Made by a program: the position numbers and the translations under genes. Positions 8,637 to 60,246 of a DNA stretch of 64,000 nucleotides are shown here, in pieces. Each line of letters begins with the position of its first letter. Within the stretch, counting starts at the first letter, position 1. Origin of the DNA: Eledone cirrhosa (lineage: Eukaryota). The stretch is from the NCBI GenBank assembly GCA_964016885.1, contig OZ024742.1:245520001-245584000 (forward strand), given 5' to 3'. The notes beneath the pieces were generated by a model, which was given only the letters and a program-made list of their open reading frames with translations, was not told the DNA's origin and did no database searches.

Positions 8637-9020
8637 AGGTTTGTATGAGTGAGAGATGATAAATAGGTAAGTGTTAGGATTAACAATTGGATGGATAGAT
8701 AGATGTGAAGATAAAAATAAAATATAAAGTATGATGTGCTATAGTTCAATAATATATTTTGTATTTTATCATATATTTCGCGAACAGGTGATTGATCAAG
8801 GTAGGTAACTCTCATAATTTAGAAAACTATTAAAGTAGTTAACGGTATTTGATATAATCCAGTTACAACCACTTCTAGCTCTGATACTGATTCATATATA
8901 GCTGGCTGCTCTTCTCTCCTCGGACGCAGATAAGTATTTATTTACTCGCTGTGTTTGCTAATATATATTAGAATAAATTACCACAATATTTTTTAATACA
9001 TATTCATAAAATATATAAAC

Positions 9021-9536
9021 ATGGAAGCATGCAAGAAAAAAATGAATGCTTTAATTTTAGAGCGAGTAAATGCTTTGGACAAAGCTGAAGAAGCTATAAA
9101 AAATTACCAGCTCTTAGAAGAAGAGAAGAAAAAAGTTGACGAAGAATTGGTATGGATTAATAAGAAATATGGTAATTTAGAGAGAGATAGTGATGAAAAG
9201 ACTGGCCAGTTAGAAAAAACACAGGACATATTAAGATACACAGAAGAGAAACTATCGGAGACGGAGAACGAAACACAAGATCTGAACAGAAAGATAAATC
9301 TTCTAGAGTTAGATCTTTCCCGATCAGAGAGCCAGTTAGAAGAAAAAAGGGTACAAGCTGAAGAAGACTCTGATAAGCTACAATCAGCCGAGGTCAGGGC
9401 TTTAGATGCTGAACGTAATGTCCAAAAACTTGAAAACGAAATCGACATGCTTACGAAAGAACTTCAAGATGAAAAGACAAAATATAAAACTTTGTGCGAG
9501 GATCTGGATGAAGCTTGTAACGAAATGACTAATTAG
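9021..9536 (+). CDS. Short intronless tropomyosin-like protein (171 aa)
   Basis: MEACKKKMNALILERVNALDKAE matches the tropomyosin start MDAIKKKM..NALDRAE. LNRKI falls at 88-92 as in canonical Tm. The C-terminus SDKLQSAEVRALDAERNVQKLE..KYKTLCEDLDEACNEMTN matches Tm 229-283. Start context aacATGG; downstream AATAAA. Confidence 0.9.
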   Translation: MEACKKKMNALILERVNALDKAEEAIKNYQLLEEEKKKVDEELVWINKKYGNLERDSDEKTGQLEKTQDILRYTEEKLSETENETQDLNRKINLLELDLSRSESQLEEKRVQAEEDSDKLQSAEVRALDAERNVQKLENEIDMLTKELQDEKTKYKTLCEDLDEACNEMTN

Positions 9537-9610
9537 AAAATATTTTTTTTCAAACCATCACTAAACTTATTAAAAGAAATGGACAAAAAAACAACAAAAA
9601 CGTTTTTAAG

Positions 9611-9616
9611 AATAAA
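9611..9616 (+). promoter_or_regulatory. Candidate polyadenylation signal of the tropomyosin-like gene
   Basis: AATAAA about 75 nt after the stop. The region is AT-rich, so a chance match is possible. Confidence 0.4.
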
Positions 9617-9847
9617 AACATGAAGAGATATCTAAATTATTGCCATTGGTATGTTTTATCCGTGCTATGTTGACACTGTAAAGACTCAGTCCTTATGCTG
9701 GTTTGTAATGTTATTTTCTTATCGAATTTCTACTGTATACACCACATCGCAAACAACTTTATTGTTATTATTGTTATTGTTGTTGTTGTTATTGCTATTT
9801 TGGTTAATTGAAAACCAGAACCTCAAGTGTTAAGAAAAAGCTTGCCA

Positions 9848-28348: not shown

Positions 28349-31313
28349 TCATTTCATTTCATTTGAGTTTGAGTCCATGCTCAGGCCAAGTCGAAGACCT
28401 CCACCCTCAGAGTCTGGTGTGGTTGCCAGGTTGGATTCTCTGTTTAATTTTGACATGTGTAAGAGCGAGTTTGAGTCAGTTTGTGTTTGTTGTGTATATC
28501 CTGGGAGATGGGGTTCATCTCTAATGGTGCTTAAGTATCTATCCAGCTGCAATTTGAATGATTCCACACTGCATCCTGATAGATTTCTGACATGTACCGG
28601 AATGGAGTTGAATAGTTGTGCCCCTCGAACCAACAGACTTGACTCTCGCAGGGTTTTTGCTGCCTGGCCAGCCCTTTTGTTGATTGGTGGTAGCTGGCAG
28701 CGTCTTCTGTGGCGCAGTGAGTGGTAGGTTTTGATACCAAAGTTTGGCACCTTTTGCTCTATCATTTTCCAAATGTATATAATTCGGTATCGCTCAAATC
28801 TTCTTTCTATTGAGTACATCTTCAAGGTTTTGAGTCTTTGCCAATAGTCCAGGTCCCTCATTTCTGAGAAGTATGAGATAAAATTTCTTTGGAGCGATTC
28901 CATCTTAGATAGTTGGCCCTTTGTTGTTGGTGACCACAACTGAGAACAGTAGTCAATCCACGGAAGTACCATACTGTTCCAGAGGGTTTTCATTGTTGAG
29001 GTATCTCTTGATTTGAAGGTGCGCAAGATCCACCCGTTGAACTTTCTTGTAGTAAGACAGACTGAGTCAAGGTGTTCTTTGAATTTTAGGCTGGTTCCCA
29101 TGTGGATGCCTAAATCTTTCACACACTGTTTTTCCATTATTTGTTGTCCTGATGGGTTTCTGTAGTTTGTTGTATTTTTCAGATCTTTATCTGTTCCGTA
29201 GCGAATTAGTTCAAACTTCTTATCATTGAACAACATGTTGTTTGTTTCCTGCCATTTGTATATGGTGGTTAGGTCCTTTTGTAAGGCCTCTGTATCCACC
29301 TCGTCTTTGATTTGTCTCATGACCCTGGTGTCATCAGCAAAGGATGAGACGTTGCTGGTTGTATCTTCATCTATGTCAGAGATGAGGATGAGAAACAGGA
29401 TCGAGCCGAGTACTGTACCCTGAGGAACACTGCTGGTCACAGGTGATGGTGTTGAATGGGTTCCATTCACAGTGACTGTTTGAGTTCTATTTGTAAGGAA
29501 CTCATGTATCCATGTACCAACTTTTCCTCCTACTCCTAGCTTTCGAAGTTTGTGTCCCAGGATGCCATGATCTACCTTGTCAAATGCCTTGGCAAAGTCG
29601 AGGTAAATAACATCTGTGTTGTATCCATTCTCTAGATTTTCTAGGATTTGGTCATGGTGTGCCAGTAGTTGCGAAAGACATGATCTACCTAACCTGAATC
29701 CATGCCGATTGCAATTCATCAGATTGTTGGATTCCAGGAACTCAACCAGTTTTCCACGAACTATTCTTTCGAAGACCTTGATAATGTGTGATGTCAGTGA
29801 GATTGGTCGGTAGTTCTTTGGTTTTGATTTGCTGTCCCCTTTATGTATTGGAGTTATGTGTGCTTCTTTATATGTATTTGGTATTTTGCCATTCTCCATA
29901 GATTCCTTCCATATCATGTAAAGGGGTTTCAACAATTGTACCTTGCAGTTTTTAAGTATCATGGCATTGAAACCATCAGACCCCCGCAGCCGAGTGCATG
30001 GAGAGCTTGTCTATGGCTCTTTCTATGTCTTCTGGGTTGAAATCAATGTCGGATAGGGTAGGTTTAGTATGGTCGATATCCTTGAAGAATTCTCCTGGGT
30101 CATGGATCTTCATGGTTTTAGATGGCTCACTGAAGACACTTTCATACTGTTGACCCAACATTTCTGCCATTTCAATAGGGTTATTCACTACATCCCCATT
30201 TTGTCTCTGGAGAGGTCCTATTGTTGACTTGGTATTCGAGTATTTCTTTGCAAAACTGTAGAAACATTTTGGATTTTTCTTGATGTTTTCTATGGCTCTC
30301 TTTTCTGCATTGTTACGTTCTTCATCATAGTGTTGTTTTAGATTGTCTTCTAATCTGTATATTTGGTCAAGGACTTTCTGTAGTTCATGTTTTGATGTCA
30401 GCTTAGATGTTTTGTTTCTTAGTCTTGACCTTTTGCGCATCAGGATCTTTCGCTCCCGTGGTACAGGTTTTTTTATGGATTTGGTTTTCTTAAGAGGAAT
30501 ATTTTTTGCACATATTTCTTCGATCTTGTTTAAGAATTTCTTGTGTTTATCTGGCCCAGTAAGGTAGAGATCCCAGTCAATGATTTGTAACTGGTTATTA
30601 ATAGTTTCCCAATTTGCCTGGTGATAATCATACCTGCATAGCTTTGGCATGTCCTTTTGTTTAAGAGTTGTGGCATTGGGCTAATTACCAATGTGTAAAT
30701 GCATTTCAATAATATTGTGGTCTGAAAGGATTGTTGGGGTTGAGTGAAGGTCAAATAGCATGTCCTCGTTGTTGGTGAAAACCAAGTCGATCGTATTATT
30801 ATTTTTAGTTGCTTCTGTCATCATTTGTTTGAGGTATAATTTCTCTGTGACTTCCAACAGTTTGGCTGCCTGTATTTGTTCAGCTTTTGTCCCCAGTTTT
30901 AGTATGTGTCCATGTGGCCAGATGATGTTAGGGAAGTTGAAGTCACCAAGGAGGATAATGTCTGGCATTGGACTCGCCATGTTTCCCAGAATTTGTTGGA
31001 GCTTTGTCAGTGGCTCAGTGAAGGATAATGTTGGGCTGTTTGGCGGTCTGTACATTATTGTTACAACTGTATTAAGTTGGATGATTTTTATGCACAGCAG
31101 GTTGCAGTAGGCATTTGATTCATTGACAAGTTCTATGCATGCATAGGTATCATGGATATACATGATCACGCCCCCATGGGATCTGCCTTGTCTATCACAT
31201 CTGAAGATGTTGAATCCATTGATTGAGATTTCGCTGTTGCGGATGTTTTCGTTGAGATGACTTTCAGTAATTCCAATTATTTTGGAGTTGTTTTCTGTTG
31301 CTAATTCTTCCAA
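28349..31313 (-). pseudogene. CR1 ORF2 (APE endonuclease + reverse transcriptase), disrupted
   Basis: ITESHL, YRPP, GDFN, SDH (APE); NYRPISL, YLDFAKAFD, VPQG, FADD, KDLG (RT). In-frame stop at 30681-30683 and a frameshift at SAAG-PDG near 29980. Confidence 0.92.
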
Positions 31314-31369
31314 GAAAGGGACTTTACAATGTTTTTTTTTCGGATAAAGACCCTGGATATTTGCTGTTA

Positions 31370-32728
31370 TTATGCTTGTTGTACCGGATACATCTGCCCT
31401 ATTGTTGGCAAGACTGTTGTAGTTGCTGGGACTGTGCTGACTGGATATTCGGTCTGCTGGGCTGTCTGTATTTGTTGTATGTGCCCTGTAAGTCCAGGTG
31501 TCAGCCTTTGTATCAATGTTGCCTGGTTTTGCTGAGTCATCTGTATGGAGTACAGCTGTTGTTGTAGTTGGTAGATTATGCCTAAAAAAGTGCTTTCATT
31601 CATTACTGTATCGAATTTCTGCGAGTTTGGGTTCGTTACAGCTGATGTGTGCAATTAAGTAGCATGATTTTCATTCACTGTTGAGCCATGTCCTGGTTTC
31701 TGCATTTTTGGGAAATGGTTTTCATACCCTGCTGAGCTTGGTCCTGGTGGTGTGCGTTCAGTAGTTTTTATGCGAATTGTACCCTTCCGGTGCATAAATT
31801 TGCAATTCTCGTCAAAACATTCTTTTTTTCTCAGCGAATTGCGGCACATCTTTGGGTGAAGGAGTTCACATTCTCGGCCATTTTGGCATCCTTTTTTTCG
31901 ATCAGTACCGAAGTTGATATATGGTTTGCATGGTTTGGGGTGACTGTACGTGCACCCTTTACCTGAAAGACCATGTTTGCACTTGTTGCTCCTGTAATGG
32001 ATACATAGTGGCCTTTCTTCATTTGAGCGTTTGCTCTGAATCTGTTTCTTTTCGTGGGAAGTTTGGTCTTTTTCTGCAGGATCTCCTGTTTCTTGTTTTG
32101 TAGGTGTTTGCATGTCATTGTCTTCATTCTTGTCATTTACAAGAGGCACTTGGATGGCCTGTGTGTGGCAGGATTTATTTGCCATGTCAGTTTCGCCAAT
32201 CAATGTCTGTTTAGAACGGCCTGTCTGTGGTAGGGTCCTAGGGTCATTCGTTATTGTGGCCCTTGGTGAACAATAACCGCATAGCCAGTGTAGGCCTAGA
32301 ATATCTGGAATGGTGTGGTTATTTATCTTTTTTAAGTAGCACGCTTCGTGTATTCCTTGTCCACAGATGAAGCATGCCAAAGCTGGTTTTTGGCCAAATG
32401 TAATGCAGTACTGTTTGTCACACATTTTGCAAGTCTCCGGGAGGAAGTTTTCAATCCTTGTTATAATCCAGTTGGTGAGGTTTGATTTTGTGAGCTCAAC
32501 TTGAACACCATCATTCAAGAAAGCTGCTGCTTTCTTTAACATCGTAAACTTACAGTTTGTGAAAATATTTTTGTATATTGCTCCACTTTCCTGTTTGATA
32601 TCATATTTCGACAAGACACTTTTTATATCTTGATTTTGTGTTGATGAGATGACTTTCAATATGATGTCTGTGGCCAGGCAAGTGTTGCTCTCTGAGCTGG
32701 CAGTCCGGGGATTTCCGTTACCCGTCAT
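31370..32728 (-). pseudogene. CR1 ORF1 with PHD finger and three CCCH-type fingers
   Basis: CKMC..CFICGQGIHEAC..WLCGYC, then CIHYRSNKC..CTYSHP, CKPY..C..C..LHP and CRNS..C..C.FMH. One in-frame stop at 31655-31657 before a Q-rich tail. Confidence 0.85.
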
Positions 32729-33057: not shown

Positions 33058-35176
33058 ATGGACATGTCACAACCAATGACAGAGGCCGAGATTTAAGAGC
33101 TGCGGGCTATGATCAGAGAGTGGGCTGGTCAAATTAAAGCCCTCTCAAACCAATTAGAGAACCTGACCTTTCAAACACACCGGCGACGCAGCAACAGTCG
33201 ATCCAGGCCCTTTCACCGTCGAAGATCCAGAAGTCCCAGTCAAAATCGTGTGTCTGGCAACCTCTGCTGGTATCACAAAGAATTCGACGCACAGGCATTT
33301 AAGTGTAGGGCCCCGTGTTCTTTCCAGAATACCACCCAGGGAAACGGGCAGACCAGGGCCTAGCGACGATCACCCCTGGTACTGAGAAGAAAAGTCGTCT
33401 ATTTTTTATCAATGACCAAGTGACAGGCATCCGTTACCTCGTGGATACAGGTGCCGAGGTTAGTATCATTCCTGTTTCACTAGTCTCGTGCAAAAGACAT
33501 CCAACGCCGTTCTTTCTGCAGGCAGTGAACCAATCGTCAATTCCGACTTTCGGGGAGAAATCATTGACCCTCAATTTAGGCCTGAGGTGTCGTTTTCAAT
33601 GGGTGTTCGTCGTGGCAGACCTGCCGACCCCTATCTTAGGAGCTGATTTTCTTCAGCACTTCAACATTCTGGTGGACATGAAGAACCGGAGGCTTATTGA
33701 CACCACCACAAACCTCACTGTGAGAGGTATATTTACCACGCAATCCACAGTGTGTCCTGTAATTTGCCAGTCAGAGCCTTCGCGTTACAACGGCATTCTC
33801 CAGAAATACCCAGACATCACTCGCCCAGTATTTAAGGATGGACCTATTAAGCATAGTGTCACACACCACATCGAGACAAGAGGACCACCCACAGCTGCCT
33901 GACCAAGGAGACTGCCTCCAGACCAATTGATAATCGCCAAACCGGAGTTTCAACACATGCTGGACCTCGGAATCATTCGCCCTTCCTCCAGCAACTGGTC
34001 TACACCCCTACACCTTGTTCCTAAAAAAACAGAGAATGATTGGCAACCATGTGGGTATTATCGTGCACTCAACAATTCTACAGTACCTGATAATTACCCT
34101 GTACCTCACTTGCACGACTTTTCTGCCTCTCTGCAAGGCGCACGCATCTTTTCCAAGATAGATTTGGTACGAGCATATAACCAGATACCTATGGAGACTG
34201 CAGATATTCCGAAGACTGCAATCACAACACCGTTCGGTTTATTTGAATTCCTGCGAATGCCATTCGGTCTGACTCCTGACGGACCTTCTTCGCAACCGGA
34301 CTCGCAAAAACGAAGAGATCACTCTAAACGAGGAAGAATTAACATCTTTTAACCGCCTGAAGGAAATGTTGGCAAACGCTTCCATGCTCGTTTTCCCCAG
34401 ATCTGGTGCTCCTCTTTCGCTGTTAGTGGATGCATCAAACACAGGGGTTGGAGGCGTTTTACAACAACATGTTTTCATCATGTTTTCATCATGTGCATAT
34501 CGACATCGTTGGACCTCTACCACCATCACAGAACTGTACACACTTGTTCACCTGCATAGATCGATTTTCCCGTTGGCCTGAGGCTTTTCCCATAAGTGAT
34601 ACCTCAGCGGAAACAGTTGCTAAAACTTTGGTTTTACACTGGGTATCACGTTATGGCGCCCCAGCAAAGATAACAATGGATAGAGGACGCCAGTTTGACT
34701 CCCACCTCTTCAGGGAACTGACTCACCTGTTAAGGTGTAAACACATCCGCACGATAGCTTATCACCCGCAAGCTAATGGTCTCATAGAAAGATTCCATCG
34801 CCAATTGAAAGCCGCAATAAAAGCATATCCAGACAAGACCCACTGGTTTGAATACCTGCCACTCATCCTTCTGGGCATTCGATCCACCATTAAGGAGGAA
34901 TTCGGACACACACCTGCAGAATTAGTGTACGGTACCACCCTGGTTCTACCTGGTCAGATGGTTGCTCCCATCTCTCCTCAGGATGTCCCAGACCAGGATC
35001 ATATGTACACCGTCTTCCACAATATATGTCTCACCTTGCTCCTGCAAGCACCCGTCTACAGAACACGGCCACACACGTACCTTCAGACATTAAAGATTGG
35101 ACACACGTTTTCGTTCGAAACGACACCACCTCAGCTCATCTTTGACCTCCATATTCTGGCCCTTATCGCGTTCTAA
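33058..35176 (+). pseudogene. Gypsy gag-pol remnant
   Basis: Gag C-terminal knuckle CWYHKEFDAQAFKCRAPC; protease LVDTGA; RT N-half to RMPFGL (no YxDD); RNase H start [13 protein letters not shown]; integrase [30 protein letters not shown]. Confidence 0.9.
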
Positions 35177-45001: not shown

Positions 45002-45188
45002 TAATAATAATAATGTTGTTGCTACTGGAGGAGTGTGGTAGATAGGCAATATTCATAGAGCATCAGACAAAATACATTTGTAGTATTTGTCGCTAGCTCA
45101 TAAAATGGTTATAGGGATGATGATGATGATGAGTGAGACCTTTATTTTATCTTCAATTATATTTTTGTCTTTTGATCATAAATTTTAG

Positions 45189-45484
45189 GAAGAAATTGGA
45201 TGACAAACTGTTTGAACGAGAACTTAAGTTGGCAATGGAGATGTCTATGCAGGAAATTGGCAGCACCAGCTCCAAAGAAGAACTTCAGGATAATGATACT
45301 AGTGATTTTCAAGATACTCCACAGAAGAATTCTGCATCAGAACGAGTGGAATCTTTGAAATTATCTCGACATGACATCCATTCACCACCCAAGTCTCCAT
45401 GCTGCATGTCTCCCCCATTATTGCTCAAAGAAGATGACAAATGCATCCTCGCTAAGGATTCTGTTAAACAATCTACCATGCCTT
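45189..45484 (+). CDS. RAD51AP1: RAD51AP1-like exon 4
   Basis: ttttag|RKKLDDKLFERELKLAMEMS (compare LDDKLYQRDLEVALALS)...STMP|gtaagt. Confidence 0.88.
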
Positions 45485-45518
45485 GTAAGTATAAACAAAT
45501 TGAGAATTAATTCTGTAG

Positions 45519-46306: not shown

Positions 46307-49300
46307 ACGTTTAACGTCCGTGTTCCACGCTTGCATGGGTTTGGACGGGGGTAGTCCCACTTGAGGCAAGAGTGATTGTCTTGCTCGCATAGGACTGTCT
46401 GGCAGGTTTTCTACAGTTGGATGCCCTTCCTAACACCAACCACATTTACAGTGTGGGTCTGGGAGGTTTTTACCGTGTTGCCTACACGGCCACATTACAG
46501 CGTGGACTGTGTGTTTTTTTGTCGTGACACCTACACGATCTCATTTGTTTCGGCCTGGATGGTGTGGCACCAACATAACTTTACATAGAACGGGGTGGGG
46601 GTGGGGTGGGGGGGGGGGGGTATTTTGTTAGAGATGCCTACTGGCTGTAGTAGGTTTTACTATGTATTTAGGTAAGGCGGGTCTTCTCTGTTACTGAGTA
46701 CCGCCAAAGGTCTCGGTCCAGTGACATTGTCTTGGAGAGGTGTAAGTGTGTGAGGTCGGAGTTTATCAGCTCGTCCCAGGTTTTCCTAGGTCTGCCTATT
46801 CCGTGGCTACCGTCTATCTTTATTGCCCTGCACTTTGTTATACAGCTATCGACTTTCATGCGCATCACGTGTCCATACCAACGTAGCCTTCTCTCGAGTA
46901 AACAACATCTGATCCCTCTTATTTCTAATTTTTTCCTTAGTTCGTTTATGCTTTGCCGTTCACGTATATTACTGTTACACATCCAGCGGAGCATGCAAGC
47001 TTCGTTCCTCTCTAGTCTGCGTATATCCTCTGCACACAATGCCCAGGTCTCACTGCCATGCAACATTGCTGTTCGTATGTAGGCATCGTACAACCTGCCT
47101 TTCATTTTTAGGGAGAACCCTTTAGCAGCTAATAGTGGTATAAGCTCTCTGAACTTTTTCCAACCAGTTCTGACTCTAGCTACTGTACTTTCAGAGCACC
47201 CTCCCCCACTGCTGATTTTATCACCCAGGTAACGGAAACTGTCCACTATTTCTATAGAACCGTCTGCGCAATTGAAAGAGCTAGTATTTTGTGGGCACTT
47301 GCTGCTACTTATTGCACCAGAGCACCGGCCACATGTAAAATCTATGTTCTTAGTTAGCTTACCTGTGATCCCACTACATCTTTTATGCACCCATACTTTG
47401 TATTTAGGACATAAAATGGAGTTTCTACCTACGCCTTTCCTACACACCGAGCACGACCATTTCCCAGAAGGGACCGCCGCCTTATTTTCTTTCCTACAAA
47501 CTAGAACTTTAGTCTTAGCCAGGTTAATTTTAAGGCCTTTTGATTCTAGGCCGTGCTTCCATGTTTGGAATTTCTTCTCTAGCTCGGCCATTGATTCCGC
47601 TATGAGTGTCAGGTCGTCTGCGTATAGGAGTTCCCATGGGCAGCCGGTCTTGAACTCCTCTGTTATAGCCTGAAGGGCAATAATAAATAGTAGGGGGCTG
47701 AGAACAGAGCCCTGATGGACGCCAACTTTTACGCTAAACTCTTCACTATATTCGTTGTTAATTCTAACCTTGCTGACTGTTTCTTTATACATGGCTTGTA
47801 TAGCTCTCACAAGCCATTCGTCAACACCTAGTTTTCTAAGAGCCCACCAGATAATGGAGCGGGGGACTCTGTCGAAGGCTTTCTCCAAGTCGACAAAAGC
47901 TAAGTAGAGGGGTTTACCTTTAGCTAGGTACTTCTCCTGTAGTTGTCGTACAATGAAAAGAGCGTCTGTGGTACTTTTGCCTGACACAAACCCGAACTGC
48001 ATTTCATCTAGGTCAATTCTCTCTCTGATTAGTTGTGCTATTACTTTTTCCGTGACCTTCATGACCTGGTCGATTAATTTAATGCCTCTATAGTTACTCC
48101 TATCTAGGGCGTCTCCTTTACCCTTATAACAGTTAACGATGATGCTGCTATGCCAGTCCTTCGGAACAACCCCATTCTGTACGACTTGGTTAACTATGCG
48201 GGTGACCATGGTGTGTCCCACCGTGCCAGATGCCTTCAGCATCTCAGCAACTATTTCCGAAGGCCCAGCCGCCTTACCCGTCTTCATATCCTTGATTGCC
48301 TTACTTATTATACTCCCCTCGACTAACACTGCTGGTCCCTCTATTGGGTCGATATGGGGGAGACTGTCTTTCTCCCATTTATTCTCCTCATTTAGTAGCC
48401 TTTCATAGTGACACTTCCAAGCTACCTTCTTATCAGCGTCGGTGATGGCAAGTATGCCATCATCGTTAAGTACACACTTCTCCCCGACAATATCACGGTT
48501 TTCCTTGACACATTGCCTAGCAATCCTGAACACCTCACGTTTTTGGTCATCGCGTTGTAGAACATGCTTGAACTTTCTTTCCTCAGCTTCCCTTCTTGCT
48601 AAGTACACTTGTCTCCTAGCTTCCCTCCTGGCCACTTGATAGTCTTCTCTACTTCCCCCATCCCGCCATACTTTCCAAGCCTGCTTTTTGGCCTTAATTG
48701 ACCCCTCCACCTTACTGTTCCACCACCATGTTACTCTCCTCCTGCCTACAGGCCTGCTCCAGCCACAGACTTCGTCTGTCGCCAACAGCAGGTTTGCTTT
48801 CAGAAATTCCCACTCTCCCTCTATATTGTCCGACTCTAAATGTTCTTCCTTACTGTCGAAAGCATCAAGTAATATGCTTTGAAATTTATTCCTGGCTGTG
48901 GGGTCCTTTAGCTTCCATATTTTTCTCCTGAGGATAGTCCTCTTCTGCTGTCGAGTACGTCTCGTCCTGACTATGAGGTCGCTAATTATCAGTCTATGTT
49001 GGGAGGTGCATTCTTCATGGGGGAGGGATTTAGTGTTTACAACAGACACTCTGTCACGTCTTCTGGTAAGGATATAATCTACCTGGCTTGTGTGTTCCCC
49101 GGATCTATAGGTGATCAGGTGATTGTCACGTTTTTTGAAGTTAGTGTTACAGATAGTTAGGTTATTTGCATCACAGAATTCCAGGATTCTGGAGCCTTCC
49201 TCATTTCTAGTACCAAACCCATAGCCTCCATGGATTTCATCGTAGCCATCACAATATTGTCCAACGTGACCATTTAGGTCGCCTGCAATAATTATATAGT

Positions 49301-49657
49301 CACTGTCGGATATTTGGGAGGTAGTTAGCATCAGTGTCTCATAGAATCTGTCTTTTATAGTGCCGGGCAGTCCGGATTGGGGTGCGTACGCAGATATTAC
49401 TGTCACCGTAGTTCTATTGAGGACAAGTCGTATTTTAATTATTCTGTCGTTCACTCTATTTACGTCTATTATCTTATCTGCCCACTTTTCTGCTACCATG
49501 ATTCCTACTCCACCCAGCCCATCGTCGTTTCCCACCCAGAAAAGCTTATAGCATCGTTTTTTACCCTCAATGAATCTAGCAGACCCACCCCTCCACCTGG
49601 TCTCTTGAATACAACAAACATCGACCTCCTTACGTTCAAGCATTTCTACAACCTCGT
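46277..49657 (-). mobile_element. Young RTE-clade LINE, slightly 5'-truncated, (GAT)n tail
   Basis: Single uninterrupted APE-RT ORF, about 360-bp 3' UTR, (ATC)n on the plus strand. Near-identical 3' copies at 52399 and 61141. Confidence 0.95.
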
Positions 49658-49661
49658 ACAT
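46668..49661 (-). CDS. RTE APE endonuclease-reverse transcriptase ORF (997 aa)
   Basis: IQETRW, SAYAPQ, GDLN, SQHR, NYRGIKL, FVDLEKAFD, GVHQGSVLSP, YADD, YLG, RLRWYGHV, GRPRKTW. Lacks the first APE strand (ATLNV..) present in the 55629 sister. Confidence 0.92.
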   Translation of the reverse strand: MYEVVEMLERKEVDVCCIQETRWRGGSARFIEGKKRCYKLFWVGNDDGLGGVGIMVAEKWADKIIDVNRVNDRIIKIRLVLNRTTVTVISAYAPQSGLPGTIKDRFYETLMLTTSQISDSDYIIIAGDLNGHVGQYCDGYDEIHGGYGFGTRNEEGSRILEFCDANNLTICNTNFKKRDNHLITYRSGEHTSQVDYILTRRRDRVSVVNTKSLPHEECTSQHRLIISDLIVRTRRTRQQKRTILRRKIWKLKDPTARNKFQSILLDAFDSKEEHLESDNIEGEWEFLKANLLLATDEVCGWSRPVGRRRVTWWWNSKVEGSIKAKKQAWKVWRDGGSREDYQVARREARRQVYLARREAEERKFKHVLQRDDQKREVFRIARQCVKENRDIVGEKCVLNDDGILAITDADKKVAWKCHYERLLNEENKWEKDSLPHIDPIEGPAVLVEGSIISKAIKDMKTGKAAGPSEIVAEMLKASGTVGHTMVTRIVNQVVQNGVVPKDWHSSIIVNCYKGKGDALDRSNYRGIKLIDQVMKVTEKVIAQLIRERIDLDEMQFGFVSGKSTTDALFIVRQLQEKYLAKGKPLYLAFVDLEKAFDRVPRSIIWWALRKLGVDEWLVRAIQAMYKETVSKVRINNEYSEEFSVKVGVHQGSVLSPLLFIIALQAITEEFKTGCPWELLYADDLTLIAESMAELEKKFQTWKHGLESKGLKINLAKTKVLVCRKENKAAVPSGKWSCSVCRKGVGRNSILCPKYKVWVHKRCSGITGKLTKNIDFTCGRCSGAISSSKCPQNTSSFNCADGSIEIVDSFRYLGDKISSGGGCSESTVARVRTGWKKFRELIPLLAAKGFSLKMKGRLYDAYIRTAMLHGSETWALCAEDIRRLERNEACMLRWMCNSNIRERQSINELRKKLEIRGIRCCLLERRLRWYGHVMRMKVDSCITKCRAIKIDGSHGIGRPRKTWDELINSDLTHLHLSKTMSLDRDLWRYSVTEKTRLT

Positions 49662-50392: not shown

Positions 50393-51294
50393 GTAAATTT
50401 AACCCTTTTGATACCTAAAACCTTCTATCATATTTTACTGAAGTCAACTATACTTTTCATCCTTTCTAATAAAGTACTAGTGTGTTTTGAGTTCAAATCC
50501 CACCACCTGTCATAAAGCTGTGACACTTCTACGAGGAGTTGTAACCAGCAAATAGTATCAGTAATGTAAAGACGAATGGAAACACATACTGTATATACTC
50601 GAAGATAAGCCAATCCAAATATAAGCTGACCCCTATTTTATGTCTGAGAAATAGGCAAAAATTCAAATTCCATTTATAAGTCAGGGCAGGTAATCAACAC
50701 ATTATGTTTAGATGGTGCAGTTTCAAAATCCTCATGAGTAGAGAATATATTTATTGAATTTTAATATTTTGATATTTTGAATGTTTTTAAGTGTCATTTA
50801 AAATATAGTTTTTGTTTCACAACTCTATTATGTAATGATGTTTTACCAATTTCCAACCATTTGGCGTTAGGAAGGGCATCCAGCCGTAGAAAATCAGTCA
50901 AAAGCACCCTTATATGAGCGAGACACGGTCACCCAACCCAACTTGCCTCTAAATGGGACCCGTCTAACCTATGCTAGCGTGGAAGATGGATGTTAATCAA
51001 TGATGATGATGATGATTTAAAGGCTATAATCATTCAAAACAAATAAAAAATAATAGGAAATACAAAATTTCACAATGAAAGTGAAACCAGTGTAGTAATA
51101 TTTACCTCCAAAAATGAAAATATTTTAGCACCTTCATTTACATAAAATTTTGAAGTTGGTGAAAATTGTTGTTTCAAAAGGCTTTACTTTTACTCTACTC
51201 ATTTACCTGGTGGTGGCCATGCTGGAGCACTGCCATTACTTGCATGTTCCAATTTATTGCAAAATTTCTTTTCTCTGTATTTTTAATTTATTAG

Positions 51295-51423
51295 ATAGCG
51301 ATGAAGAATTTGAAGAAGACTGTGACTATGGCAAGAAATATGGAAAGAAAAATAAGAAAGGAGCAGCAAAAAATGTTAAGACAAAAAAAGATAACAACAG
51401 TGTAAATAAGAAGTCATCAACAG
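51295..51423 (+). CDS. RAD51AP1: RAD51AP1-like exon 6
   Basis: ttattag|DSDEEFEEDCDYGKKYGKKNKK..SST|gtattg; phase 1 on both sides. Confidence 0.82.
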
Positions 51424-51432
51424 GTATTGTTA

Positions 51433-51885
51433 TCATCACTATTATAGCAACACTAACACCACCACCACCATCACTATTATAGCAACACTAACACCACCAC
51501 CACCATTACTATTATATACCACCACCACCATCACTATTATAGCAACACTAACACCACCACCACCATTACTATTATATACCACCACCACCATCATCACTAT
51601 TATATAGCAACACCACCACCACCACCATCACTATTATATAGCAACACCACCACCACCACCACCATTGTCACTATTATATATCACTACCACCACCACCACC
51701 ATCATCACTATTATATATCAACACCACCACCATCATCATCACTATTATATATCACCACCACCACCACCACCACCATTATATATCAACACCACCACCACTA
51801 TATAACAACTCCGCCACCACTACTATATATCAACACCACCACCACTATATAACAACACCATCAACACCACTACCACCACCACCGT
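51433..51885. repeat. (CAC)/(ACTATTATA) compound minisatellite filling intron 6
   Basis: Repeating cactattatagcaacactaacaccaccaccaccat-like units of about 30 bp. Confidence 0.85.
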
Positions 51886-52398: not shown

Positions 52399-53182
52399 CA
52401 TCATCATCATCAACGTTTAACGTCCGTGTTCCACGCTTGCATGGGTTTGGACGGGGGTTTTCCCACTTGAGGCAAGAGTGATTGTCTTGCTCGCATAGGA
52501 CTGTCTGGCAGGTTTTCTACAGTTGGATGCCCTTCCTAACACCAACCACATTTACAGTGTGGGTCTGGGAGGTTTTTACCGTGTTGCCTACACGGCCACA
52601 TTACAGCGTGGACTGTGTGTTTTTTTGTCGTGACACCTACACGATCTCATTTGTTTTGGCCTGGATGGTGTGGCACCAACATAACTTTACATAGAAGGGG
52701 GCGGTGGGGGTGGTGGGACGGGGTGTAGTAGGTTTTACTTTGTATTTAGGTAAGGCGGGTCTTCTCTATTACTGAGTACTGCCAAAGGTCTCGGTCCAGT
52801 GACATTGTCTTGGTGAGGTGTAAGTGTGTGAAGTCGGAGTTTATCAGCTCGTCCCAGGTTTTTCTGGGTCTGCCTATTCCGTGGCTACCGTCTATCTTTA
52901 TTGCCCTGCACTTTGTTATACAGCTATCGTCCTTCATGCGCATCACGTGACCATACCAACGTAGCCTTCTCTTGAGTAAACAACATCTGATCCCTCTTAT
53001 TTCTAATTTTTTCCTTAGTTCGTTTATGCTTTGTCGTTCACGTATATTACTATTACACATCCAGCGGAGCATGCAAGCTTCGTTTCTCTCTTTTCTGCGT
53101 ATATCCTCTGCACACAATGCCCAGGTCTCACTGCCATGCAACATTGCTGTTCGTATGCAGGCATCGTACAACCTGCCTTTCA
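52399..53182 (-). mobile_element. 5'-truncated copy of the young RTE family
   Basis: Near-identical to 46290-47105. Inserted in (TA)n. Confidence 0.92.
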
Positions 53183-53382
53183 TATATATATTTAGGTTTG
53201 TTGGTTCACCACTGGATAGAATTGGTCATTCCGTATGGTCAATCTCGATGTAATATTATGGAGAGTACTCAACATAATGCAGTTCACCCGTCTTCATTTG
53301 TGTAGTTGGTGGTGCGAGTATGGAGTTAATTATTATAAAATAACAGCAGGCTGGACTGGTGTAAATCCTTGAAAGGTTTATT

Positions 53383-55149: not shown

Positions 55150-58100
55150 CAGTCAAGGGGCGGACGGAGGCTCCGTAAGCCGTAGTGTAGGCAATCCATC
55201 TAGGAGAGCTACCACTCCAAATATATTTGTGCGGGGTAGAGAAGTCCCCTCAGTCCAGTAAGACAACTTCCCTAGTGCTGGTGGCACGAATAAAAGCACC
55301 CAGTCCATGCTGTAAAATGGAGGGGTGGATAGGGCCCCTGAGTCCAGTAAGACGACCTCTCTAGTGCTGGTGGCACGAATAAAAACACCTAGTCCATGCT
55401 GTGAAATCGAGGGGTGGATAGGGCCCCTGAGTCCAGTAAGACGACTTCTCTAGTGCTGATGGCACGAATAAAAACACCTAGTCCATGCTGTGAAATCGAG
55501 GGGTGGATAGGGCCCCTGAGTCCAGTAAGACGACCTCTCTAGTGCTGGTGGCACGAATAAAAGCACCCAGTCCATGCTGTAAAGTGGTGCTGGTGTTAGC
55601 AAGGGCATCCAACCAGTATATATAAACTATGAACACAACAAATGAAATTTGCAACAACTGCGTAAACAGCAATAACACTAGCCATGTTAGGGCTGCACAC
55701 AGTAGTGGGGTGGTTAGTGAGGCCATGTGTGAGAACCCCACGACCGTCATCAAGCAATCGCACAACAGGAAAAAGAACGAGACGTCGCATCTCAGAGTTG
55801 CCACACTTAATGTTGGCACTCTAACAGGTAGATCTGGTGAGATAGCGGAGATGCTGAAGAGAAGGCATGTGGATGCGTGCTGTGTGCAAGAGGTGAGATG
55901 GAGAGGTGCCTCTGCAAGACTAATCGCAGGCAAACATCGTAGTTATAAGCTTTTCTGGGTGGGTAATGATGATGGGTTAGGTGGGGTGGGCATATTAGTG
56001 GCTGAGAGATGGATCAATAAGACAATAGAGGTAGTTCGAGTTAATAATCGAATAATTAAGCTTAGATTAGTTGTAGGCAAGAGACTACTGACAATCATCT
56101 CTGCCTATACTCCCCAGGCAGGCCTAGGTAAAGAAGAGAAAAACTGCTTTTACAAGCAACTTTTACAAACAGCCTCAATGACAGAGGACAAAGATATTGT
56201 TATGCTAGCAGGGGACTTCAGTGGTCATGTTGGACAGCTCCAAGGTGGTACACTGGGGTACATGGTGAGCACAGTTACGGCTCAAGAAATGAAGAAGGAG
56301 TGAGGCTTCTTGAATTTTGTGATGCAAATGCACTAACCATTTGCAACACTAACTTCCAGAAGCCTACCAACCACCTAATAACCTACAAATCAGGCGAGCA
56401 CATAAGCCAGATTGACTTCCTGCTAGTTAGACAGCGAGACAGACAGATGGTGTCAAATACTAAGTCATACCCCGGGAAGAATGTACCCCACAGCATAGGT
56501 TAGTCGTTAGTGACATCTCAGTAAGCAAGAGAAAGAATGAGACATACAGGAAGGTGTGGAAAATATAAATTAAAATATAAATTTAGCAAAGCCCTTCAAG
56601 GTGTGTATGACGAAAAAGAAGACGATTTAGTGTTGTATGACATAGATGATAACTGGAATTTCTTGCGTGACAACTTACTGCAGGCTACTGAAGAAACTTG
56701 TGTTTGGGGCAGAGCTTCAACCAGGCAGAGAGTGACCTGGTAGTGGAACAGCACAGTAGAGACAAAAACAGCCATTAGAGACAAAAAGACTAGCATGGAA
56801 GGCTTGGAAAAATGGTGGGAGTAGAGAAGGATACACAGCTGCTAAGAGAGAAGCTAGACGTCAGGTGTACTTAGCACGCAGGGAGGCTGAGAGTAGGAGG
56901 TTTGCCAATGTTCTGCGATGGGAAGATCAGAGGCGTGCGGTGTTCCACATTGCAAGGCAGGTGTCAATGCAAATCAGAATGTTGTTGGAGATAAATGTGT
57001 CCGGAATGATGCCGGTGTACTTAGTGTCACGAATGATTAAAAAAAGAAGGCCTGGAAATGTCATTATGAGAGACTGATGAATGTGGAGAACGAATGGGAG
57101 AGAGAGAAATTACCTCCAGTAGACCCGACAGAGGGACCAGCTATTGAGATTGACGAATATAGGGTACAAGAGGCAATTAAGGAAATGAAGAATGGTAAGG
57201 CTGCTGGACCATCGGGGATAGTTGCTGAGATGCTGAAGGCATCAGGAGAAGTAGGCACTAAACTGGTTGCACGCATCATCAATCAAGCTATATATGGTGG
57301 TGTCACACCCAAAGACTGGTGCAGCAGTATTCTCATAAATAGCTACAAAGGTAATGGAGATGCTCTGGAGAGGAGCAATTATAGGGGCATAAAGCTGTTG
57401 GATCAGGTTATGAAAGTGGCAGAGAGAATATTAGCGCAACTGATTTAAAAAAGGGTCAAATTAGATGAGATACAGTTTGGTTTTGTGCCTCGGAAAAGTA
57501 CAACAGATGCCCTCTTCTTAGTGAGGCAACTACAAGAGAGGTTCTTAGAGAAGAATAAGCCACTATACTTAGCTTTTGTTGACTTAGAGAAGGCCTTTGA
57601 TAGGGTACCCTGATCTGTCATCTGGTGGTCCCTAAGGAAACTAGGTGTAGAGGAATGGCTTGTGAGGACAGTGCAAGCTATGTACAGGGGTGCTGTCAGT
57701 AAAGTGAGAGTAGGAATGGAGTTTAGTGAGGAATTCCAGATACAAGTAGGTGTACATCAGGGTTCGGTCCTCAGCCCGCTCTTGTTCATTATAGTCCTCC
57801 AAGCCATAACAGGAGTTTTAAGACTGGCTGTCCATGGGAACTTCTCTATGCTGATGATCTGGTTCTTATTGCAGAATCAGTAGAGGAACTAGAGAATAAA
57901 TTCTGGCTATGGAAACAGCAGTTGGAATCAAGAGGACTGAGAGTGGACATAGCTAAGACAAAAGTGTTGATGAGTAGAAAAGAGGACAAAACTCTGATTC
58001 CGTCAGGGAAATGGCCATGTTCGATATGTAGGAAAGGAACTGGCGTAAATTCTATAAAATGTATGCAATGCAGATCTTGGGTACACAAGAAGATGTGGGA

Positions 58101-59693: not shown

Positions 59694-60092
59694 CTAGCTG
59701 AGGTACCCAGCTTTACCCGGGAGAACAATTAAGAGAACACAGATAAAAGAGAAAACGACTGTATTGGATGTGTTGTCTGGTTTACAGTATGAGGTGAGAC
59801 CGTAATGTGTGTGTGTGAGAGAGACATACAAAAAACAATCATAAAACTTCCTTATTTGGCTGGGGGAGTAAACTGCCGATTAAATTGTAGCATTTGCCTT
59901 GGATTTTAAATGTGAAATAACCATAGTCAGTATGATCTTTTTCAGCTCCAAAGGATGTTATCTAAAACGCAGTTAAAACCGATTCTAGACTTTTGTTGGA
60001 TGTCTCTCTCTCTCTCTTTAGATGTGTGTGTAGTTTTTGTGTGATTCAACCAACCAACCAACCAGCCAATAAACATCTCTCTTTTATATTGA
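59694..60092 (-). mobile_element. Probable non-autonomous Helitron
   Basis: Minus strand ends cccgggtaaagctggg hairpin + tacctcagCTAG|t and begins a|TCaatataaaagagag next to a (GGTT)n run. Confidence 0.55.
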
Positions 60093-60118
60093 TTTTAATG
60101 TTTTTTTGTTTTTTTCAG

Positions 60119-60246
60119 TGAAAGTCAGTAATAGTGATCGTACTTCCAGTTTGAAGGTTGTCTCTCCTCCAAGTGGGATTCGTATTGGTCTTTCCCGCAA
60201 CCAAAAAGTAAAACCCCTGCATCCGACAGTGAAAGCACAGCACTGA
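60119..60246 (+). CDS. RAD51AP1: RAD51AP1-like terminal exon with RAD51-interacting motif
   Basis: tttttcag|..SPPSGIRIGLSRNQKVKPLHPTVKAQH*, matching the RAD51AP1 end LRLGLSRLARVKPLHP. The eight exons total 1293 nt = 430 aa + stop. Confidence 0.92.

Follow-up and report, generated by a model that had tools for sequence, protein, structure and literature searches.

The locus and its surroundings

The window analysed here is a stretch of 64,000 nucleotides from Eledone cirrhosa. At positions 9021-9536 (+), it contains an uninterrupted open reading frame of 171 codons that runs from ATG to TAG in a single exon, lies in AT-rich, microsatellite-rich DNA and encodes a short tropomyosin (P0001), as assigned from the frame, its Pfam match and its fit to a full-length parent. 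The protein matches PF00261 (E 5.4e-19, 69 bits; curated cut-off 38.6) and vertebrate alpha-tropomyosin (E 3e-20), with residues 1-103 placed on residues 1-103 and the match ending with residue 170 on residue 282. Its Met-Glu start fits N-terminal acetylation by NatB. The protein has no proline and a pI of 4.58, and its frame opens with the conserved N-terminal sequence and closes with the conserved C-terminal end; absence of proline and conservation of both ends are used as criteria for tropomyosins in the available text of one study (PMC3805550). A first-pass annotation had described the gene as an intact, intronless mini-tropomyosin of animal type. The open frame, the PF00261 match and the absence of the parental introns bear out the first part of this description, and the vertebrate match together with a gap-free fit to the host's own exons bears out the second.

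The gene is flanked by two blocks that it has in common with a 209-aa paralogue: an upstream block (8797-9020, +) that is a candidate promoter and 5' leader, and a downstream block (9537-9780, +) that contains AATAAA at 9611-9616 and is a candidate 3' UTR. A scan for bacterial promoters gave 2 sites versus 2.7 expected and is irrelevant to this gene. Contigs from four runs of one study, all of unrecorded kind, were compared with the region 8650-9840. In run X2 (88 million letters of contigs; run kind unrecorded), colinear, copy-specific contigs cover 8847-9263 and 9416-9679, and their depth, although depth is a poor measure, is 339 and 641 compared with 6-8 in X1, X3 and X4 (about 1400 million letters each). 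Run X2 leaves 8650-8846 uncovered, where X1 and X4 have cover, and no joints were listed. The pattern looks like that of an RNA library; coming from one study and from contigs, with depth as its measure, it is not counted as evidence of expression. RNA editing was considered for six differences in the 9234-9445 contig and rejected, as the letters are those of the 209-aa paralogue. A spliced-in middle segment was likewise rejected, because the deletion junction described below lies inside a continuous frame that leaves no room for one.

Elsewhere in the window, a RAD51-interacting motif (PF15696, E 2.5e-10) at 60073-60243 (+) probably marks the final exon of a neighbouring RAD51AP1-like gene, and 45133-45507 and 51129-51479 may, as a guess, be further exons of it. 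An open LINE frame of 997 aa with endonuclease and reverse transcriptase domains occupies 46668-49661 (-), with decayed relatives at about 52746-53183 and 55629-57880. A second LINE-like element (28349-32728, -) is spread over several frames with reverse transcriptase and endonuclease, and its upstream 357-aa frame has no Pfam match. At 33309-35173 (+), a broken pol resembling that of LTR retrotransposons has pieces of protease, reverse transcriptase and integrase in different frames. Outside the window, contig C3 carries at 109.40-109.41 Mb (L014-L034) open frames of 1300-2900 codons that are repetitive and coiled-coil-like and have weak tropomyosin-profile scores.

The parental gene and the central deletion

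The parental tropomyosin gene of E. cirrhosa is found on contig C12 (37.67-37.74 Mb) and has many alternative exons, spread across about 65 kb. The 284 residues are encoded by nine exons with GT-AG borders, and the introns follow codons 38, 80, 124, 164, 187, 213, 234 and 257. Four tandem exon-4 variants, two of exon 5 and three exon-6-like copies lie at 37.72-37.73 Mb (L036 7821-8892, L038 2142-6338); the exon variants match many Octopus isoform models.

When the 171-aa protein is fitted to the 284-aa parent along two diagonals, the best solution has an offset of 0 followed by 112, with a score of 334. The next offset scores 272, and 100 heptad-preserving shuffles reach a mean of 110 and a maximum of 174. 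The same fit gives an offset of 112 for the Octopus, Argonauta and 174-aa proteins. The break falls at residues 116-119 (9366-9377, +), which correspond to parental residues 228-231. Residues 1-116 (9021-9368, +) correspond to exons 1a and 2 of the parent and to part of its exon 3, or periods 1-3, and residues 117-171 (9369-9533, +) to parental residues 229-283, or period 7 with the C-terminal overlap end. The loss of exactly 16 heptads with retention of both ends, proposed in the first-pass annotation, is thus recovered against the host's own gene, and so is the register of L88-N89-R90 with canonical tropomyosin. The gap-free alignment claimed there for residues 1 to about 112 and 117-171 holds for residues 1-103 (45/103 identical to the parent) and 117-171 (23/55), whereas residues 104-116 are only weakly assignable (3/13 identical at offset 0, 0/13 at offset 112). 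The a/d core runs unbroken through the junction, so that the coiled-coil phase is kept as had been proposed. The expected loss of the central periods is also seen, as the 112 absent residues comprise periods 4-6 and include the troponin-core region 130-190.

Exon skipping was considered as the source of the gap and rejected. The break falls within exons 3 and 7, away from the exon borders after codons 124 and 213 or 234; the gap is therefore a deletion. The introns after codons 38 and 80 in the first retained part and after codons 234 and 257 in the second, the four that can be tested, are absent in the window gene, in agreement with the intron loss noted in the first pass, and in the three other copies of this genome described below. 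The N-terminus combines exons of the 1a and 2 types (score 72 for exon 1a versus 11 for exon 1b). At the C-terminus, exon 8a is preferred with 61 versus 17 and exon 9a with 47 versus 29.

Short tropomyosins of octopods and the 38-residue step

A search of the genome identified at least four intronless short tropomyosins of 171, 174, 209 and 247 aa, all of which lack the same 112 residues and keep both overlap ends. The 209-aa paralogue lies 26 kb upstream of the window gene on contig C3, and the 174- and 247-aa paralogues are found on contig C12 at 6.16 and 6.24 Mb. The closest database proteins come from Octopus vulgaris (171 aa, 80%) and Argonauta hians (171 aa, 77%), and O. bimaculoides has a 193-aa model that is 79% identical over 81% of the query. 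By these matches, the short form is conserved in at least three octopod genomes besides that of E. cirrhosa. In the O. bimaculoides model (XP_052825081.1, P0004), the N-terminal residues 1-55 are unrelated sequence, joined to the rest near residue 34, where the parent has no intron; the model may be wrong, the assembly may have a gap there, or the copy may be broken. Cys4, Cys159 and Cys166 of the window protein (9030-9032, 9495-9497 and 9516-9518) are new relative to the parent, recur in Octopus vulgaris, Argonauta and the 209-aa paralogue, and would sit near the head-to-tail overlap.

Among 166 proteins, 92 have both test blocks, and the spacing of 112 occurs in eight of these: the four paralogues, the three named relatives and one protein from the 'merc' source. 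In an unrooted tree of 19 rows and 122 gap-free columns, from which matches without canonical spacing were left out, the 8 short forms stand apart from 11 tropomyosins of canonical spacing with a bootstrap of 100. Because the short forms group apart in this way, the tree indicates that the 112-residue deletion happened once. A profile search of 1.84 billion representatives gave 412 matches at E 0.001; of 150 listed, 59 were testable, and among the matches listed only the Argonauta cluster (P0003) has the spacing of 112. No squid or cuttlefish member was identified, which is not evidence of absence. Two unnamed tropomyosin-like models have other internal gaps, P0280 (177 aa, 122 missing) and P0185 (240 aa, 58 missing). 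They may be mis-built models or independent shortenings, so that other short animal tropomyosins are possible. Two relatives of the 247-aa form come from the 'merc' source. We take this source to be built from marine metatranscriptomes; if so, the short family is transcribed in some animal, which says nothing on the window copy.

The lengths within the family change mainly in steps of 38 residues (171-174, 209 and 247 aa). The self-repeat at an offset of 38 beats 200/200 shuffles in the 209- and 247-aa forms and 199 and 200 of 200 in the two 'merc' fragments, and in the same repeat test it is absent in the 171-aa form, the 174-aa form and the parent. A DNA repeat finder did not recover the corresponding 114-base units, which are too diverged. 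The unit covers about residues 32-69 (9114-9227, + in the window gene), takes in the beginning of period 2, lysine pair included, and displaces the heptad by three residues. It is present once in the window protein, with one extra copy in the 209-aa form and two in the 247-aa form. Segment 25-38 was scored against two segments of the 209-aa form: against residues 63-76 the scores are 58 for the window protein, 49 for Octopus and 53 for Argonauta, and against residues 25-38 they are 8, 25 and 14. In the 209-aa form, it is the first segment (25-38) that is most parent-like (33 versus 11). The 171-aa forms of the window, Octopus and Argonauta have thus probably lost one unit from a 209-aa ancestor, with the reservation that gene conversion could blur these segment scores and hence the order of unit loss.

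Probable gene conversion, and selection

The window gene and its 209-aa neighbour probably exchange sequence. Near-identical tracts lie upstream (79/80 bases over 8797-8876), within the gene (206/212 bases over 9234-9445, +) and downstream (about 9650-9753), and suggest gene conversion between the neighbours. Conversion is likely in 9234-9445 because this tract is almost identical while the other codons differ at a dS of 0.75. The dN/dS between the two copies is 0.26 (95% 0.15-0.46, 168 codons), and 0.19 (0.09-0.35, 97 codons) outside the converted tract; these ratios come from paralogues that exchange sequence rather than from orthologues, and average two non-independent copies. For all other pairs dS is saturated, and none of the four copies has a stop or frameshift in spite of this divergence. 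In neutral simulations with substitutions alone, the frame stays open in 27/2000 cases (1.35%) at 0.18 changes per site and in 3/2000 (0.15%) at 0.37 changes per site. The first-pass annotation had read selection from an open frame in decayed DNA. The ratios of 0.19-0.26, rather than a value near 1 that would count against it, and the conservation across genera support purifying selection, but the open frame itself is no sign of it, since the 997-aa LINE frame of the window is also open.

Predicted structure and actin-contact surface

The monomer is predicted to be a single helix over residues 2-170 (pLDDT 96), for which a Foldseek search gave 0 matches and was uninformative. The homodimer is predicted to be parallel and in register, with a score of 0.51 versus 0.00 for the best of 3 controls, at a mark that is reached by 21/30 solved microbial pairs, 0/23 single chains and 7/16 animal pairs. 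The runs agree in 99% of contacts (pLDDT 88), and the predicted interface is continuous over the junction. The structure prediction suggested in the first pass thus favours a parallel homodimer, although its success may reflect likeness to solved tropomyosins.

Periods 1, 2, 3 and 7 remain in the 171-aa protein. Basic pairs are kept at residues 6-7, 48-49 and 90-91, with a spacing of 42 residues, and R132 (parental R244) is kept as well. The outer charges of the parent have periodicity peaks at 40.5 and 19.75, whereas Fourier analysis of the 171-aa proteins does not recover peaks near 39 and 20 and puts the top peaks at 46-47, although peaks at 20.5 and 19.75 are seen with the 174- and 247-aa forms. 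Read by hand, periods 2 and 3 keep 3/7 and 4/7 of the consensus positions, versus 4/7 and 6/7 in the parent. The protein has 40.2 residues per actin at an overlap of 10, versus 39.1 in the parent, and 5.8% alanine versus 11.3%.

Origin and function of the short family

A spliced mRNA of the long isoform is the likely template of the short family, because the introns are absent and the exon types are 1a/2 and 8a/9a, and the four intronless copies likely arose from one reverse-transcribed copy. Loss of the 112 central residues from that copy would have given rise to the family of four. A homodimer with both overlap ends would be able to form a head-to-tail polymer that runs along actin. In vertebrate tropomyosin, one period can be removed as 35 or as 42 residues with like effect, according to the accessible part of one study of engineered deletions (PMC2814127), and for this reason a loss of 112 residues (42+35+35) would fit the removal of three periods and leave the 171-174-aa forms with a span of four actins. 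Each 38-residue unit, with its own basic pair, would add one actin site and a heptad shift of three residues, so that the 209-aa form would span five actins and the 247-aa form six, and the window copy would have contracted again from a 209-aa ancestor. In vertebrate tropomyosin, region 130-190 binds the troponin core (PMC2710508, as available). With this region, the contact with the troponin core and calcium switching through it would be lost. We consider it probable that the genes form a functional, retro-derived family of short tropomyosins that coats actin autonomously with spans of four, five and six actins. The more specific proposal that the octopod family binds actin without period 5, tunes its span by the 38-residue unit in convergence with budding yeast and serves specialised troponin-free filaments, perhaps cross-linked end to end by cysteines, is put forward tentatively.

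Other accounts of the origin and status of the gene are less convincing. That the gene is a tropomyosin of fungal type, brought in by transfer or contamination, can practically be dismissed. Although a language-model feature search ranks fungal clusters of 154-173 aa first (0.95, with animal clusters at 0.93-0.94), its recognition is below the reliable level, and the protein matches vertebrate tropomyosin at E 3e-20 versus 7e-4 for the 161-aa solved tropomyosins. Moreover, it fits the host's own exons without gaps, its gene lies among host repeats on a 379-Mb contig, and relatives exist in Octopus and Argonauta. The vertebrate match and the host-exon fit were decisive in rejecting this origin. 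Duplication of the parent at the DNA level, followed by the deletion and by intron loss without retroposition, would leave the proposed function unchanged and is improbable. No poly-A tail, target-site duplication or match to the parental UTRs is seen at the window gene, and two copies lie on the parent's own contig, 31 Mb away, as such a duplication might leave them; decay of the marks of retroposition is expected, because synonymous sites are saturated with respect to the parent. All four testable introns are gone in all four copies, and a single spliced combination of exons is present despite the many alternative exons of the parent, both of which speak against a DNA-level origin. Another reading is a processed pseudogene or recently silenced copy, kept intact partly by conversion from the 209-aa neighbour. 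The near-identical tracts, several period-2 substitutions peculiar to the window copy and the abnormal N-terminus of the O. bimaculoides model could be taken this way, but the dN/dS of 0.19 outside the converted tract at a dS of 0.75, the intact frames of all four copies at saturated synonymous sites and the recurrence of the 171-aa length in two other genera-level lineages make it very improbable.

In vertebrate tropomyosin, the available text of one study describes period 5 as a primary actin site and residues 130-190 as among the most important for actin binding (PMC2710508), and removal of periods 4-6, by analogy, counts against coating of actin by the short forms. The eroded consensus positions, the halved alanine content, the long repeat and the charge periodicity that was not recovered count against it as well. 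A modelling preprint (10.64898/2026.07.06.736648), a computation, argues in its accessible part that actin is more easily fitted by shorter tropomyosins. A functional protein that does not coat actin by itself would be a modulator that caps or interrupts tropomyosin cables or acts only as a heterodimer, or a non-actin coiled-coil polymer that is possibly cross-linked via the new cysteines. Such a role would suit the loss of period 5, the unclear charge periodicity with a slightly long repeat, the conserved Cys4, Cys159 and Cys166, and an identity to the parent of about 45%, while in exon 3 the parent itself shares about 90% of its residues with Octopus. We nevertheless regard it as unlikely, because the length changes amount to whole actin periods, each of which brings a basic pair, and all four paralogues retain both overlap ends; if the protein no longer depended on actin, it is hard to see why the 38-residue step would persist. 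Autonomous coating of actin is therefore the preferred reading.

Comparison with known tropomyosins

Descriptions of animal tropomyosins give lengths of about 284 and 248 residues, and those of forms that span four or five actins come from fungi. The octopod short family is a real, selected and apparently undescribed variant. No description of the 112-residue deletion or of the length series was found in the literature searched, which covered few subscription journals, and the accessible parts of PMC3843815 and PMC4458049 contain nothing that bears on short octopod tropomyosins. CAI9725312.1, GAB1608282.1 and XP_052825081.1 are members of the family that carry only automatic tropomyosin-like names.

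Compared with the 284-aa seven-period muscle tropomyosin of Eledone and Octopus (PF00261), the short proteins are alike in periods 1-3 and 7, both ends, heptads, acidity and absence of proline, and are about 45% identical over the shared 122 columns. They differ in lacking the introns and the 112 residues of periods 4-6, in a lower alanine content and in three new cysteines near the ends. The six-period cytoskeletal tropomyosins of 245-248 aa (Octopus vulgaris CAI9721610.1, human TPM4) are likewise shorter than 284 aa. However, these are shortened N-terminally via exon 1b and keep the centre, whereas in the octopod family exons 1a and 2 are retained and it is the centre that is missing, so that the 247-aa paralogue has reached the same length by an unrelated route. 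Engineered deletions of 35, 42 and 77 residues in vertebrate alpha-tropomyosin, as described in the available parts of PMC2814127 and PMC2710508, also remove whole heptads that approximate whole periods. The octopod deletion is by contrast natural and conserved, and takes period 5, whose loss ranks among the most damaging in those accounts.

A parallel is found in yeast. In S. cerevisiae, Tpm1 (199 aa) equals Tpm2 (161 aa) plus 38 residues after codon 35, which add one actin period (PMC3805550; PMC12440208), and the two proteins span five and four actins, respectively (PMC2120352), as far as these sources were available. The octopod unit is also 38 residues long, lies at about residues 32-69 and brings a heptad shift. 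Because the octopod sequences are of animal type, and thus not derived from Tpm2 or from Cdc8 of S. pombe, the match in unit length and position is convergent on sequence grounds. The fungal 161-aa form has a heptad interruption (PMC3805550, available text), whereas the heptads of the octopod four-period form, which exceeds it by 10 residues, are unbroken; in octopods there is also a six-period form, with two extra 38-residue units. An animal series of 171-174, 209 and 247 aa would test the interchangeability of periods, the need for period 5 and for an unbroken heptad, and the relation of length to actin stoichiometry, and a step of 38 residues common to yeast and octopods would suggest that the addition of one actin site follows a geometric rule.
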